DNA of 64,000 nt, from positions 990 through 64,989 of the forward strand of contig JAFGCQ010000004.1 of the NCBI GenBank assembly GCA_016932555.1, written 5' to 3'. Below the pieces are notes generated by a model. The model saw nothing but the letters and a program-made list of their open reading frames with translations, had not been told where the DNA came from and made no database searches. Below, piece by piece: positions 4,717 to 43,365 of the stretch. Positions within the stretch are counted from its first letter, which is position 1. Every line of letters begins with the position of its first letter. The position numbers were made by a program, and so were the translations under genes. The stretch comes from Candidatus Zambryskiibacteriota bacterium. Its GTDB lineage: Bacteria > Patescibacteriota > Minisyncoccia > Phycocordibacterales > WO2-35-19.

Positions 4717-4787
4717 TGCGGGGTAGAGTAATAGTAACTCGCAAGGCTCATAACCTTGAAATTTTGGTGCAAATCCAAACTCCGCAA
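4717..4787 (+). tRNA. Second CAT-anticodon tRNA or tRNA-like. Atypical T-loop TGCAAAT. Possibly tRNA-Ile2 or Met, or a pseudo-tRNA.
   Basis: Cloverleaf: acceptor TGCGGGG/CTCCGCA (7 bp, one GU), D stem GAGT/ACTC, anticodon stem CAAGG/CCTTG with loop CTCATAA, T stem TTTGG/CCAAA. Position 55 is G, which is unusual. A terminator hairpin follows at about 4836-4865. Confidence 0.5.
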
Positions 4788-4922
4788 CCGCGTAAAAGAA
4801 TTGCTGCGCAATTCTCACGCGGCTGCGCCAGCAAGCCGAGTGAACAAAAACACCCATGTTGGGTGTTTTTGTTTTAAGCGAGCCACGTTATGAGCGATAG
4901 CAAATTTTACATGGCCATGATT

Positions 4923-39841: not shown

Positions 39842-40081
39842 TTAAACTTTGTTAACTTCAGTCCCTTCCTTAACCAGATTATCTACCTTCATACCAACGA
39901 CATCACCAGCAGAAGCTTTCTCTACCGACTTGTGTTCAACCTGAAGTGAAGCTATTTCTTGCTCAAAATCAGCACCATGGCCCTCAAATTTGATTTTATC
40001 ACCAATCTTAATTGAAGCTTCAAGCTCGATAATAGCAACTCCAATATTATTAAAATAATGTATTACTTTCCCGACCTTCAT
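39842..40081 (-). CDS. Small hypothetical protein (EF-Tu domain-2-like beta-barrel?). The start is uncertain: TTG at 40081 or an in-frame ATG at 40108.
   Basis: 79-88-aa ORF. A TATAAT box sits 7 nt upstream of the TTG start. Confidence 0.35.
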   Translation of the reverse strand: MKVGKVIHYFNNIGVAIIELEASIKIGDKIKFEGHGADFEQEIASLQVEHKSVEKASAGDVVGMKVDNLVKEGTEVNKV

Positions 40082-40112
40082 AATAAGTGATTATACCACA
40101 AAAATTGCATAT

Positions 40113-40208
40113 GTGGTCTTTGTGCTCGGGACAGGACTTGCACCTGCACGTCTTACGACACACGCACCTCAAGCGTGCCTGGCTACTAAATTACAGCACC
40201 CGAGCATT
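40113..40208 (-). ncRNA. Candidate structured small RNA / 5' leader. GC-rich, with its own sigma70-like promoter.
   Basis: Minus-strand promoter TTGAAA (40242-40237), 16 nt spacer, TATACT (40220-40215). Transcript of about 95 nt enclosed by an 8-bp helix TGCTCGGG...CCCGAGCA. Internal GUAA-tetraloop hairpin with symmetric AGGUGC/AGGUGC internal loop. Confidence 0.4.
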
Positions 40209-40245
40209 CATTTTAAAGTATAGCTACTTTCCCAGGTTTTTCAAA

Positions 40246-40268
40246 TTTAAAATCACCCCTCGGGGTGA
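40246..40268 (-). terminator. Rho-independent terminator after rplS
   Basis: ATCACCCC-GA-GGGGTGAT stem followed by TTTT on the minus strand. Confidence 0.7.
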
Positions 40269-40272
40269 TCCT

Positions 40273-40752
40273 TTATTCTGATTTTTCTTCAGTTTTTTCC
40301 TCTGTTCCATTATCTGCTTTAGCAGATTCTTCAGAATCATTTACTTTTGTTTGTGTGTTTGTGTCAAATTCTTCTTCTACTTCAGGTACTTCCTTGATAT
40401 TTCTCATTTGCCTTCTAACTTCCTTGGTTGCCTTTTCGCGGATATGATAAAGCTTGGCGCGGCGGACCTTAGATCTTTTTATCACTTCTATTTTTTCAAT
40501 AGCTGGAGAATAAATTGGAAATATTCTTTCTACTCCTACTCCGCTAGCCATTTTACGAATAGTGAGAGTACCTCCAGCTTCTTTGCCATGCTTTACTGCC
40601 AAACAAAGACCTTCAAAATCTTGCAGGCGAGTTTTCGGCTTACCGGTTTTTTTATCCTTTTCAACAATTTTTTGAGTCACACAAATAGTATCTCCAGAAC
40701 GAATATCTAAGTTTTTGCGTTTCTCTATGTCTATTGGTGATATCTTGATCAT
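40273..40752 (-). CDS. rplS: 50S ribosomal protein L19, with an acidic C-terminal extension
   Basis: GDTICVTQKIVE ... RLQDFEGLCLAVKHG ... GVERIFPIYSPAIEKIEV. Unusual location directly after rplB. Confidence 0.8.
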   Translation of the reverse strand: MIKISPIDIEKRKNLDIRSGDTICVTQKIVEKDKKTGKPKTRLQDFEGLCLAVKHGKEAGGTLTIRKMASGVGVERIFPIYSPAIEKIEVIKRSKVRRAKLYHIREKATKEVRRQMRNIKEVPEVEEEFDTNTQTKVNDSEESAKADNGTEEKTEEKSE

Positions 40753-40824
40753 AATTTTTATTTTAAGTTTTCGAATTATGAATCTTGAATTATGCTTAAT
40801 TCTTAATTCATACCTCTTGCCTGA

Positions 40825-41673
40825 CTAGTGTTTCTTCCCCACTTTTCTTCGACTGACGATAAACTTCTCTGAATATTTCTTGGGCGATCTGGTTTTTTGA
40901 CCTTTGCCAGTCGGTTTACCCCATTTAGAAACAGCTCTCCTTCGGCCGCGACCCTGTCTCCCCTCACCACCACCATGCGGATGATCAACCGGATTTTGGG
41001 CGGTGCCTCTAACAGTTGGTCTTATGCCTTTCCATCGGCTTTTGCCAGCTTTACCATAATTTTCAAGTTTTTTTTCTTCATTAGAAACTTCTCCGACACT
41101 GGCCCAGCAAGTTTCTTTAACCTTTCTAACCTCAGACGATGGCATTTTGAGATCTACCATTCCAGCGTCTTTAGCAATTACTTGAACGAAATTACCAGCA
41201 CTGCGAGCAATTTTGGCTCCACTTTTGGGTTTTAGTTCAACATTATAAATAAAAGTGCCAATTGGAATATCTTTAAGCGGCATTCGATTGCCCGTTTTTA
41301 TTTCTGCTCCTTCGGCTGTTAAAAACTCCTCGTTAAGATTTATACCTTTAGGTAAAAGTATATATTTTTTTTCACCATCTCTATAAATTACAAGACCAAT
41401 AAAACCAGTGCGATTTGGGTCATATTCTATAGAAGTTACTCTGTAAGGAATACCAATTTTGTTATATTTAAAATCAACTTCTCTAAAAAGCCTTTTGTTT
41501 CCTGACCCTTTGTGGCGAGTAGTAATCCGACCAGCATTATTTCTGCCAACTGCTCTTTTGCGTCCAAAAGTTAAAGATTTTTCTGGTTTGGTTTTAGTTA
41601 GTAAAGACTTATAAAACACATTGGCCATATGCCTTCTGGATTTAGTTTTTGGTTTGTATTTTTTGATGCTCAT
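40825..41673 (-). CDS. rplB: 50S ribosomal protein L2
   Basis: 282 aa, C-terminal GGGEGR motif. Confidence 0.9.
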   Translation of the reverse strand: MSIKKYKPKTKSRRHMANVFYKSLLTKTKPEKSLTFGRKRAVGRNNAGRITTRHKGSGNKRLFREVDFKYNKIGIPYRVTSIEYDPNRTGFIGLVIYRDGEKKYILLPKGINLNEEFLTAEGAEIKTGNRMPLKDIPIGTFIYNVELKPKSGAKIARSAGNFVQVIAKDAGMVDLKMPSSEVRKVKETCWASVGEVSNEEKKLENYGKAGKSRWKGIRPTVRGTAQNPVDHPHGGGEGRQGRGRRRAVSKWGKPTGKGQKTRSPKKYSEKFIVSRRKVGKKH

Positions 41674-41711
41674 TTTATTTTCTTATTTCGTAACTCTTAA
41701 CTCGTATCCCG

Positions 41712-41999
41712 TTACTCTATCTTATCTCCTTTTTTCAGATAAACATAAGCTTTTTTCACTCCTGATTTGGTACCTTTTTTACCTCGTATAAAAACTCGCT
41801 TTGTTGGATTCTTAACAATATTAATTTTTATAGGCTTAATTTTGTAAAAAACTTCAATAGCTTTAGCAATTTGGTTTTTAGTGGCCTCTGAAGAAACCTC
41901 GAAGGTATGGGTATTCGCTTCTGCAGCTAAATTAGCCTTTTCAGTAATTCTAGGTCTTAAAATAATATTTGCGTATTTTGCTTTTAAATCTTTCATCAT
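41712..41999 (-). CDS. rplW: 50S ribosomal protein L23
   Basis: 95 aa, L23 pattern. Confidence 0.85.
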   Translation of the reverse strand: MMKDLKAKYANIILRPRITEKANLAAEANTHTFEVSSEATKNQIAKAIEVFYKIKPIKINIVKNPTKRVFIRGKKGTKSGVKKAYVYLKKGDKIE

Positions 42000-42008
42000 G
42001 TTTAAATT

Positions 42009-42677
42009 TTATTTAAGCTTTAAAGATAAAATTTCAATTGATTTTTTTGGATTAACAATAATAAGGTTCCTATATTGAAGCAAATCTAAAATATTCAAAT
42101 CTTTCACTTGTCCAATCTTCAGATTACTAAAATTACCGAAGCTCTTTAAAATATTGTTATCTTTTTCTCCCAAAATTAAAAAGCATGCATTTTTTCTTCC
42201 CTTCAACGAATCAAATCCTTTAATTTTAGTTAATGAAGTCAAGATGTTTTTAGCTTCTTTAGCTTTCGGCTCTTTAAAGACAAAATTGTCAATTAAAATA
42301 ATTTCGCCATCGCTAAGTTTTTTAGAAAGTATACTGAAAAGCGCTTTGACCTTCATTTTTTTATTTATTTTTCTAGAATAATTTTTGTCAGCTCTGGGTC
42401 CGTGAGCTACACCGCCGCCGATCCAGATAGGTGACCGGCGAGAACCATGCCTAGCTTGACCAGTACCTTTTTGTTTCCAAGGCTTCCTGCCAGTACCGGA
42501 AACTTCACCTCGAATCTTAGCGTGAGCGGTACCAGTACGTTTATTCGTCATCATGGAATCCACCATTTGACGAACCAGTCTTTCAGTTTTGGTATTCCAA
42601 GATAAACCAAAAACTTCTAGGGGAAGTTTTATTTCTCCTGTTTCTTTCCCTTCTTGATTGTAAATTTTTGCTTCCAT
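42009..42677 (-). CDS. rplD: 50S ribosomal protein L4
   Basis: 222 aa, L4 pattern. Confidence 0.9.
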   Translation of the reverse strand: MEAKIYNQEGKETGEIKLPLEVFGLSWNTKTERLVRQMVDSMMTNKRTGTAHAKIRGEVSGTGRKPWKQKGTGQARHGSRRSPIWIGGGVAHGPRADKNYSRKINKKMKVKALFSILSKKLSDGEIILIDNFVFKEPKAKEAKNILTSLTKIKGFDSLKGRKNACFLILGEKDNNILKSFGNFSNLKIGQVKDLNILDLLQYRNLIIVNPKKSIEILSLKLK

Positions 42678-42713
42678 AATTTTAATCTCGAGTTACGATA
42701 AACAAGTCAAGAG

Positions 42714-43346
42714 TTACGATTTCGAATTTCGTGTTTCGTTACTCACATTTTTTACTTCAACTAATGTTCCTCTTCTACCGGGTATTGCTCCAGAGACCAA
42801 TAAATTGTTGTTCTCCATATCAATACCTACTACTTTAAGATTTTTAACTGTTATTCTTTTACCTCCCATGCGACCAGCCATTCTAGTACCTTTAAGAACT
42901 CTTTGTACACCACCAACTCCGATAGAACCCGGTTCTCTTTCAGAATGTTTCTGGCCATGAGTACGGGGACCACCATGAAAACCATGTCTCTTCACAACCC
43001 CCTGAAAACCTTTAGCTTTAGATATGGCTGAAACAGCAACAGTATCTCCTATTTCAAAAATATCAGCTAAAATCTTTTCATTTTTTTTGAATTCTATATT
43101 TTCTACTCTAAACTCCTTAAGAACAGCTGGTTTTAATTCTCCCAAGTGGCCCTTAAGCGGTTTAGAGATTTTGTTCTCCTTGCGATAGCCGAAAGCGACT
43201 TGAACAGCATTATAGCCATCTTTTTCGTTAGTTTTGATGAAAGAGACTACATTAGGTTCCACGTTCAAAACAGTCACCGGAGTCACTCTGTTATCTTCCC
43301 CAAAGATTTGGGTCATATTTACCTTTTTGGCCAATAAAAATTTCAT
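42714..43346 (-). CDS. rplC: 50S ribosomal protein L3
   Basis: MKFLLAKKVNMTQIF conserved N-terminus. Confidence 0.9.
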   Translation of the reverse strand: MKFLLAKKVNMTQIFGEDNRVTPVTVLNVEPNVVSFIKTNEKDGYNAVQVAFGYRKENKISKPLKGHLGELKPAVLKEFRVENIEFKKNEKILADIFEIGDTVAVSAISKAKGFQGVVKRHGFHGGPRTHGQKHSEREPGSIGVGGVQRVLKGTRMAGRMGGKRITVKNLKVVGIDMENNNLLVSGAIPGRRGTLVEVKNVSNETRNSKS

Positions 43347-43365
43347 GCTACAAATTTCCACAAAT

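Follow-up and report, generated by a model that had tools for sequence, protein, structure and literature searches.

The RNA encoded between rplS and a small open reading frame in the window (the whole stretch of DNA that was analysed, 64,000 nucleotides long) is, with high confidence, a functional type II tRNA-Leu(GAG) gene of Ca. Zambryskibacteria (Patescibacteria), read on the minus strand from 40205 to 40123, whose elbow carries A18 and G55. A tRNA-Leu(GAG) with its own promoter is a known kind of element and not a new RNA class. The elbow variant, a natural A18-G55 combination that is backed by covariation among relatives, appears to be undescribed so far.

On the minus strand, ARAGORN placed a tRNA-Leu(GAG) at 40122-40205. 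A covariance model, R1, was built from 37 canonical tRNA-Leu(GAG) sequences of relatives, with no G55 sequence in its training set, and it matched 40123-40205 end to end with 87.7 bits (E 1.7e-22) and all pairs standard; its runner-up matches in the window were other tRNAs, at about 33 bits. The minimum-free-energy fold of the RNA is a cloverleaf with a fifth arm, at -34.6 kcal/mol (z = -2.5 against shuffles). An earlier, sequence-only reading of this DNA had quoted the RNA sequence, which is an exact minus-strand reading of 40113-40268, and had described a discrete, structured, GC-rich RNA gene, located between rplS and the small ORF and served by a sigma70-type promoter of its own, and so it is. 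The compositional contrast which that reading pointed to is also there: 40100-40199 has about 50% GC against a window background of about 35%, and the tRNA match itself reaches 58%. What gave way was the proposal of a riboswitch-like leader, an autoregulatory mimic or a new small RNA, given that both ARAGORN and R1 identify a tRNA-Leu(GAG). The earlier observation is partly confirmed and the earlier interpretation partly supported; the framing as a new riboswitch or sRNA does not hold, and the interest that remains for tRNA biology is modest but real.

The gene (40123..40205, minus strand, from ARAGORN, R1 and the minimum-free-energy fold) is 83 nt long and covers positions 1-73, with CCA not encoded. 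On that strand it opens with the acceptor stem GCUCGGG/CCCGAGC, followed by U8 and G9, and continues with a 3-bp D-stem (CUG/CAG) and the anticodon stem CACGC/GCGUG, which closes the loop UUGAGGU. The anticodon GAG (40168..40170, minus strand, from ARAGORN and the parsed tables) lies between U33 and G37 and reads CUC and CUU, which together make up 32% of the leucine codons across 38 long ORFs from the window. Next come the long variable arm UGUCGUAAGACGU (40148..40160, minus strand; 13 nt with a 3-bp stem GUC/GAC and the loop GUAA, as given by the fold, the parsed tables and R1), the T-stem GCAGG/CCUGU and the discriminator A73. The D-loop AAUUUAGUAGC holds A18 at 40187 and G19 at 40186 (minus strand; from the sequence, the parsed tables and the R1 alignment), and the T-loop UGCAAGU (40136..40142, minus strand; from the sequence, the parsed tables and R1) reads U54-G55-C56-A57-A58-G59-U60, with G55 at 40141.

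These parts make a full cloverleaf: a 7-bp acceptor stem, a D-arm, a 5-bp anticodon stem with a 7-nt loop that has U33 and a purine at 37, and a 5-bp T-stem with a 7-nt loop. The long variable arm, the leucine anticodon GAG and A73 place it among the tRNA-Leu. Within the near-invariant core, U8, A14, G19, G53-C61, U54, C56 and A58 are present, and G18 and U55 are replaced. Several features of the sequence-only reading can be recognised in this layout under other names. The 8-bp closing helix it proposed is a real long-range helix, but it is the 7-bp acceptor stem, with an eighth pair (U-1:A73) that is incidental; likewise the GUAA hairpin is there, but as the variable arm of a type II tRNA. 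The symmetric AGGUGC/AGGUGC internal loop does not exist: one copy is the 3' part of the anticodon loop and the start of its stem, and the other is T-stem plus U54-G55-C56.

From standard bacterial tRNA biology we infer the route by which this tRNA would be made and used. Transcription would start from the gene's own sigma70-type promoter, RNase P would cut the 5' end, and the 3' end would be trimmed and given its CCA after transcription, because CCA is not encoded in the gene. LeuRS would charge the tRNA, as the two usual bacterial tRNA-Leu features, A73 and the long variable arm, are both there; the A73 discriminator has a role in LeuRS recognition. The charged tRNA would then read the codons CUC and CUU.

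Two sets of relatives were used for comparison: the genome-assembly L19 relatives (L001-L080), which are all Patescibacteria, mostly Ca. Zambryskibacteria/Paceibacteria, with L19 identity up to 86%, and metagenome contigs (L081-L160), fetched after the genome set, with L19 identity up to 90%. The two sets have some contigs in common. Of the 80 genome loci, 70 have a tRNA-Leu(GAG) after rplS; in the 80 metagenome loci, 67 further ones were called. Among 101 distinct tRNA sequences the stem pairs are 99.5% canonical, with abundant double-sided changes, and no broken stems or anticodon loops were seen among the relatives' tRNA-Leu(GAG). The check for compensatory changes that had been suggested for the closing helix came out in its favour, with double-sided changes at acceptor pairs 2-71 through 7-66 across the same 101 distinct sequences.

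The promoter proposed in the sequence-only reading is present at 40217..40244 on the minus strand, where a promoter scan and the relatives both place it: a -35 hexamer TTGAAA (40244-40239), a 16-nt spacer and a -10 hexamer TATACT (40222-40217). It matches the consensus at 10 of 12 positions, and the -10 hexamer ends 11 nt before tRNA position 1. Matches of this type are not rare by chance (a mean of 3.8 in the shuffled region), and it is the comparison with relatives, in which the site is kept in position, that supports the promoter. A sigma70 match of at least 9/12 occurs in 94 of 118 distinct upstream regions, usually as TTGAAA-16/17-TATAnT, and the -10 hexamer of these matches ends mostly 8-17 nt 5' of tRNA position 1.

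Further upstream, just 3' of the rplS stop codon, a palindromic G+C-rich hairpin is followed by UUUAAAUUU (40252..40269, minus strand, from the sequence). This is probably the rplS terminator, which the sequence-only reading also placed upstream of the promoter; the terminator scan reported the hairpin on the plus strand only, and the minus-strand reading comes from the sequence. The upstream gene rplS (40273..40752, minus strand) encodes ribosomal protein L19 (Pfam PF01245, E 1.1e-29) and is itself preceded by rplB (L2). The gene order over 40273-43361 (minus strand) is L3-L4-L23-L2 and then L19, with a gap of just 72 bp between rplB and rplS. The usual S10 cluster continues with S19-L22-S3, and the break is common to 25 of the 80 genome loci (L001-L024 and L027). 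The window's L19 has an acidic, lysine-rich C-terminal extension of about 45 aa past the Pfam domain (40273-40410, minus strand), and the L19 of most relatives aligns to it only over residues ~1-125.

Positions 18 and 55 change together in these tRNAs. In the genome set, 13 of 71 tRNA-Leu(GAG) have G55, and all 13 have AG instead of GG in the D-loop; the remaining 58 combine U55 with GG. The metagenome set repeats the pattern, with 10 tRNA-Leu(GAG) that combine G55 with AG and 57 that combine U55 with GG. Across the window and the 160 loci, G55 was found in 28 of about 360 tRNA calls (23 Leu, 4 His and 1 initiator-like CAU), numbers which count calls and not independent genes because the locus sets share contigs. 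The D-loop GG is in none of the 28 and is kept in all calls that do not have G55. Neither A18 with U55 nor G18 with G55 was found in the roughly 360 calls. The T-loops of the variant tRNAs are UGCAA, UGCGA or, in tRNA-His, AGCAN, each with A18.

The window itself contains two variant tRNAs (A18/G55) and four canonical ones. The second variant is a tRNA(CAU) at 4717-4789 on the plus strand, with the D-loop AAUAGUA (A18 G19) and the T-loop UGCAAAU (G55); it has the A11:U24 D-stem pair that is typical of bacterial initiators, and its end pair is U1-A72. The four tRNA-His(GUG) with A54-G55-C56 and AG for GG are at L016 4177-4250, L050 4140-4213, L151 3528-3600 and L159 6123-6196, and other tRNA-His with A54-U55-C56 retain GG. 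Within single genomes no genome-wide association of the swap was seen: three of the four loci with a G55 tRNA-His carry a U55 tRNA-Leu(GAG), and L151 alone carries a G55 one. A third state of position 55 also exists, in some tRNA-Arg(UCU), tRNA-Val(UAC) and tRNA-His that have C55 (T-loop UCCGAUU and similar) and keep G18 G19 (L100 869-941 and 949-1023; L151 758-830; L159 2030-2103; L069 4427-4498; L099 3570-3643). Since these C55 genes have G18 G19, position 55 is variable in the lineage, and A18 accompanies G55 only.

In a canonical tRNA, G18 intercalates between 57 and 58 and bonds pseudouridine 55, and G19 pairs with C56; G18 G19 and U54 U55 C56 are almost universal, and U55 is the base that becomes pseudouridine (PMC7912444). 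T-loops are also found in the FMN and cobalamin riboswitches, where they follow UGNRA instead of the UUCRA of tRNAs, and where the intercalating base is almost always an adenosine bonded to the sugar edge of the G at position 2 (bioRxiv 10.1101/2022.12.26.521914). The UGCAA of the window tRNA-Leu fits UGNRA, and its D-loop supplies an adenosine, A18. Because UGCAA, UGCGA and AGCAN are each paired with A18, we infer a riboswitch-type elbow contact between A18 and G55 in the variant tRNAs, from the covariation and by analogy with the riboswitch T-loops. The T-loop would have changed from the tRNA type (UUCRA with an intercalating G) to the riboswitch type (UGNRA with an intercalating adenosine), so that G18-pseudouridine 55 would be swapped for A18-G55 and G19-C56 kept as the outer stacking face. 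The proposal is that the changes at positions 18 and 55 compensate each other and thereby preserve the L-shape.

Several consequences would follow for the tRNA and its partners. The variant tRNAs would have neither pseudouridine 55 nor Gm18, and the prediction is that they occur without pseudouridine 55 in cells whose other tRNAs could still have it. Since the majority of tRNAs in these genomes stay canonical, the cell's elbow-binding partners would have to cope with the two forms side by side. If this is right, ordinary translational tRNAs of a reduced-genome lineage repeatedly trade one tertiary pair for the pair of a riboswitch T-loop, and the A18/G55 tRNAs amount to a natural double-mutant experiment on the tRNA elbow.

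To our knowledge, natural exceptions to G18, G19, U55 and C56 are mainly special-purpose tRNAs with a rebuilt core. A literature search found no description of a natural A18-G55 pair in ordinary elongator tRNAs, an absence that is no proof of novelty. What the search on natural A18-G55 or U55G returned was engineered U55G mutants, tRNAPyl and mitochondrial cases only, and U55G figures in the literature as an engineered, disruptive mutation. A recent survey of Patescibacteria tRNA genes deals with introns (PMC13011429).

How often the variant arose can be approached from the tRNAs and from the ribosomal proteins. With positions 18 and 55 and the D-loop masked, the backbones of the G55 tRNA-Leu sort into five groups or more, and for those of L046/L128, L088 and L095 a U55 tRNA is closer than any further G55 tRNA. 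On a neighbour-joining tree of concatenated short alignments of L4, L23, L2 and L19 (28 taxa, 7 of them G55), parsimony requires six changes for the trait, and at least four in all 200 bootstraps. Because the tRNA sequences do not track the ribosomal-protein tree, some of these switches may be whole-gene replacements, which would leave fewer independent events. Despite a close ribosomal-protein relationship, the tRNA-Leu(GAG) at this site is very different in L088 (G55) compared with L014 and L093 (U55), and quite different in L023 compared with L022. The sequences suggest replacement or exchange of the tRNA-Leu gene between lineages. The swaps in tRNA-His and tRNA(CAU) are in any case separate events from those in tRNA-Leu.

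It is conceivable, though we consider it unlikely, that A18-G55 goes beyond neutral, compensated drift and is an adaptation of the tRNA elbow specific to the lineage of Zambryskibacteria and related Paceibacteria, one which alters the recognition of the Leu-GAG, His and initiator-like CAU tRNAs. Were this true, it would account for the repeated origin or spread of A18-G55, and the affected binders would include TruB, TrmH, the RNase P S-domain, the ribosomal L1 stalk, LeuRS or tRNA-targeting toxins.

An altered elbow might also mark a special-purpose tRNA that works off the ribosome as a leucine donor to another pathway, in the way that the Staphylococcus tRNA-Gly serves the cell wall. There are precedents: natural bacterial tRNAs without G18 and U55 are known as special-purpose species in S. 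aureus tRNA-Gly (PMC4574755), and tRNAPyl has G55 together with a 5-nt D-loop (PMC1851642). A canonical copy of tRNA-Leu(GAG) could, moreover, lie outside the 64-kb window. We nevertheless give this reading little credence, as the window gene sits at the same site and behind the same promoter as the canonical tRNA-Leu(GAG) of relatives, and no second tRNA-Leu(GAG) was seen in any locus. The swap also occurs in tRNA-His and in the initiator-like tRNA, and G19-C56 is kept, in contrast to the special-purpose tRNAs. The T-stem pairs 49-65, 50-64 and 51-63, which set EF-Tu affinity, are as in the canonical relatives (GCAGG/CCUGU or GGAGG/CCUCU).

A decaying pseudogene, tolerated since another tRNA-Leu (for example UAG) reads all CUN codons and with its changes at 18 and 55 as damage, is a still poorer account of the gene. 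It takes what support it has from the change of two of the most conserved tRNA positions and from the Rfam score under threshold, and it runs against the G55 sequences themselves. In 18 distinct G55 tRNA-Leu sequences all 20 stem pairs are 100% canonical, with compensatory variants at 3-70 (UA/GC/CG), 10-25 (GC/CG/UA/AU), 28-42 (AU/UA), 29-41 (AU/CG/GC), 30-40 (CG/GC) and 50-64 (CG/GC). A73 and the anticodon GAG are invariant in these 18. Sixteen of them have the anticodon loop UUGAGGU and two have AUGAGGU, both of which also occur in the U55 group. Perfect stems with compensatory changes argue that the G55 tRNAs are not pseudogenes, and the candidate was rejected on this stem conservation. 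The conservation of the promoter and the 32% share of CUU plus CUC among the window's leucine codons speak against it too, and random decay does not predict that the changes at 18 and 55 are always joint and recur in three tRNA families.

The proposed link between the RNA and the small ORF also fails on the comparison with relatives. Downstream of tRNA-Leu are a 79-aa ORF, then a PduO-type cobalamin adenosyltransferase and then tRNA-His. The ORF (39842..40081, minus strand) has a weak likeness to EF-Tu domain 2 (Pfam PF03144, 23.9 bits against a cut-off of 30.3) and begins 41 nt past the RNA, with no clear terminator found between them. Its start had been left between a TTG at 40081 and an ATG at 40108; the codon at 40081 is in fact the ATG, and an in-frame stop closes the 88-aa version from 40108, which leaves an ORF of 79 aa. 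Just 4 of the 80 genome loci have the ORF, against 70 in which the tRNA follows rplS, and since the RNA is kept while the ORF is not, the RNA is not a leader for it. The 79-aa ORF is a separate gene and not a target of the RNA. The element TGGTATAAT (40090..40098, minus strand, from the sequence only) resembles an extended -10, lies 9 nt 5' of the ORF's ATG and may be the ORF's own promoter; this spacing, together with the lack of an obvious Shine-Dalgarno, suggests that the mRNA is leaderless or almost so.

As a riboswitch-like leader, as a protein-binding mimic for autoregulation or as a free-standing sRNA, the RNA would control the downstream ORF, a reading that its own promoter and its position 41 nt before the ORF would allow. 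This reading has next to no probability against a full cloverleaf with an anticodon loop that matches a tRNA-Leu model at E 1.7e-22, conservation of the RNA among relatives while the downstream gene varies, and no match to an Rfam riboswitch or sRNA family, and it was rejected on linkage (ORF 4/80, RNA 70/80) and on the lack of a curated family in Rfam. SRP RNA had already been dismissed in the sequence-only reading, rightly so, as Rfam reported no SRP family at E up to 10.

The Rfam search that had been recommended as a check returned nothing for this element at the gathering threshold, although it is a tRNA. In the scan of the whole window at that threshold there was no match at 40123-40205, and the five other tRNAs were found. 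A 451-nt piece searched at E up to 10 gave chance-level miRNA, snoRNA and IRES matches only, far under their cut-offs, and a 106-nt piece gave a partial RF00005 match of 16.0 bits against a gathering cut-off of 29. Given that blank, the Rfam check alone would wrongly have left the element seeming novel.

The elbow swap was dropped as the sole cause of the miss, since the window tRNA(CAU), which has A18/G55, scores 61.3 bits in Rfam, and in a bulk scan of 20 loci 5 of 9 fully canonical type II tRNA-Leu(GAG) also went undetected by the Rfam tRNA model at gathering threshold. Those missed were in L001, L007, L011, L019 and L053. The low RF00005 score of the window tRNA-Leu is largely a weakness of the model on type II tRNAs, and the A18/G55 swap contributes to Rfam-based annotation missing the gene. 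One G55 tRNA-Leu, that of L024, had 36.7 bits in Rfam, where the detected canonical ones ranged over 48-57. Generic tRNA models would be expected to give A18/G55 tRNAs lower scores, and the type II tRNAs of these genomes may be under-annotated generally. Covariance-model annotation can in this way overlook genuine Patescibacteria tRNAs, and their tRNA sets would then seem falsely incomplete.

The E. coli leucine tRNA that reads CUC and CUU is an example of a bacterial type II tRNA-Leu(GAG), and the window tRNA has most of its plan in common with it: the 7-bp acceptor stem, U8, the 3-bp D-stem, A14, G19, the UUGAGGU loop with G37, the long variable arm, the 5-bp T-stem, G53-C61, U54, C56, A58 and A73. 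From this type it differs by A18 for G18, one extra U before A18, G55 for U55, and a CCA that is not encoded. The likeness to the T-loops of the FMN and cobalamin riboswitches lies in the UGNRA loop and its partner adenosine; the difference is that the window loop lies within a tRNA, where C56, at position 3 of the loop, would form the tRNA-specific Watson-Crick pair with G19. The non-proteinogenic tRNA-Gly of S. aureus, which have U18U19 or C18U19 and are without U55 and C56, resemble it as natural bacterial tRNAs that lack G18 and U55 (PMC4574755). Those species lose both elbow pairs, whereas the window tRNA-Leu keeps G19-C56 and a T-stem as in its canonical relatives; they are also extra copies for a non-ribosomal pathway, whereas the window gene occupies the place of an ordinary translational tRNA. 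tRNAPyl likewise has G55, in a U54...A58 T-loop, and lacks G18G19, with a 5-nt D-loop and A56 (PMC1851642). Its core is rebuilt, with that short D-loop, A56, a 6-bp anticodon stem and a 3-nt variable loop, whereas in the window tRNA the 18-55 pair alone is exchanged.
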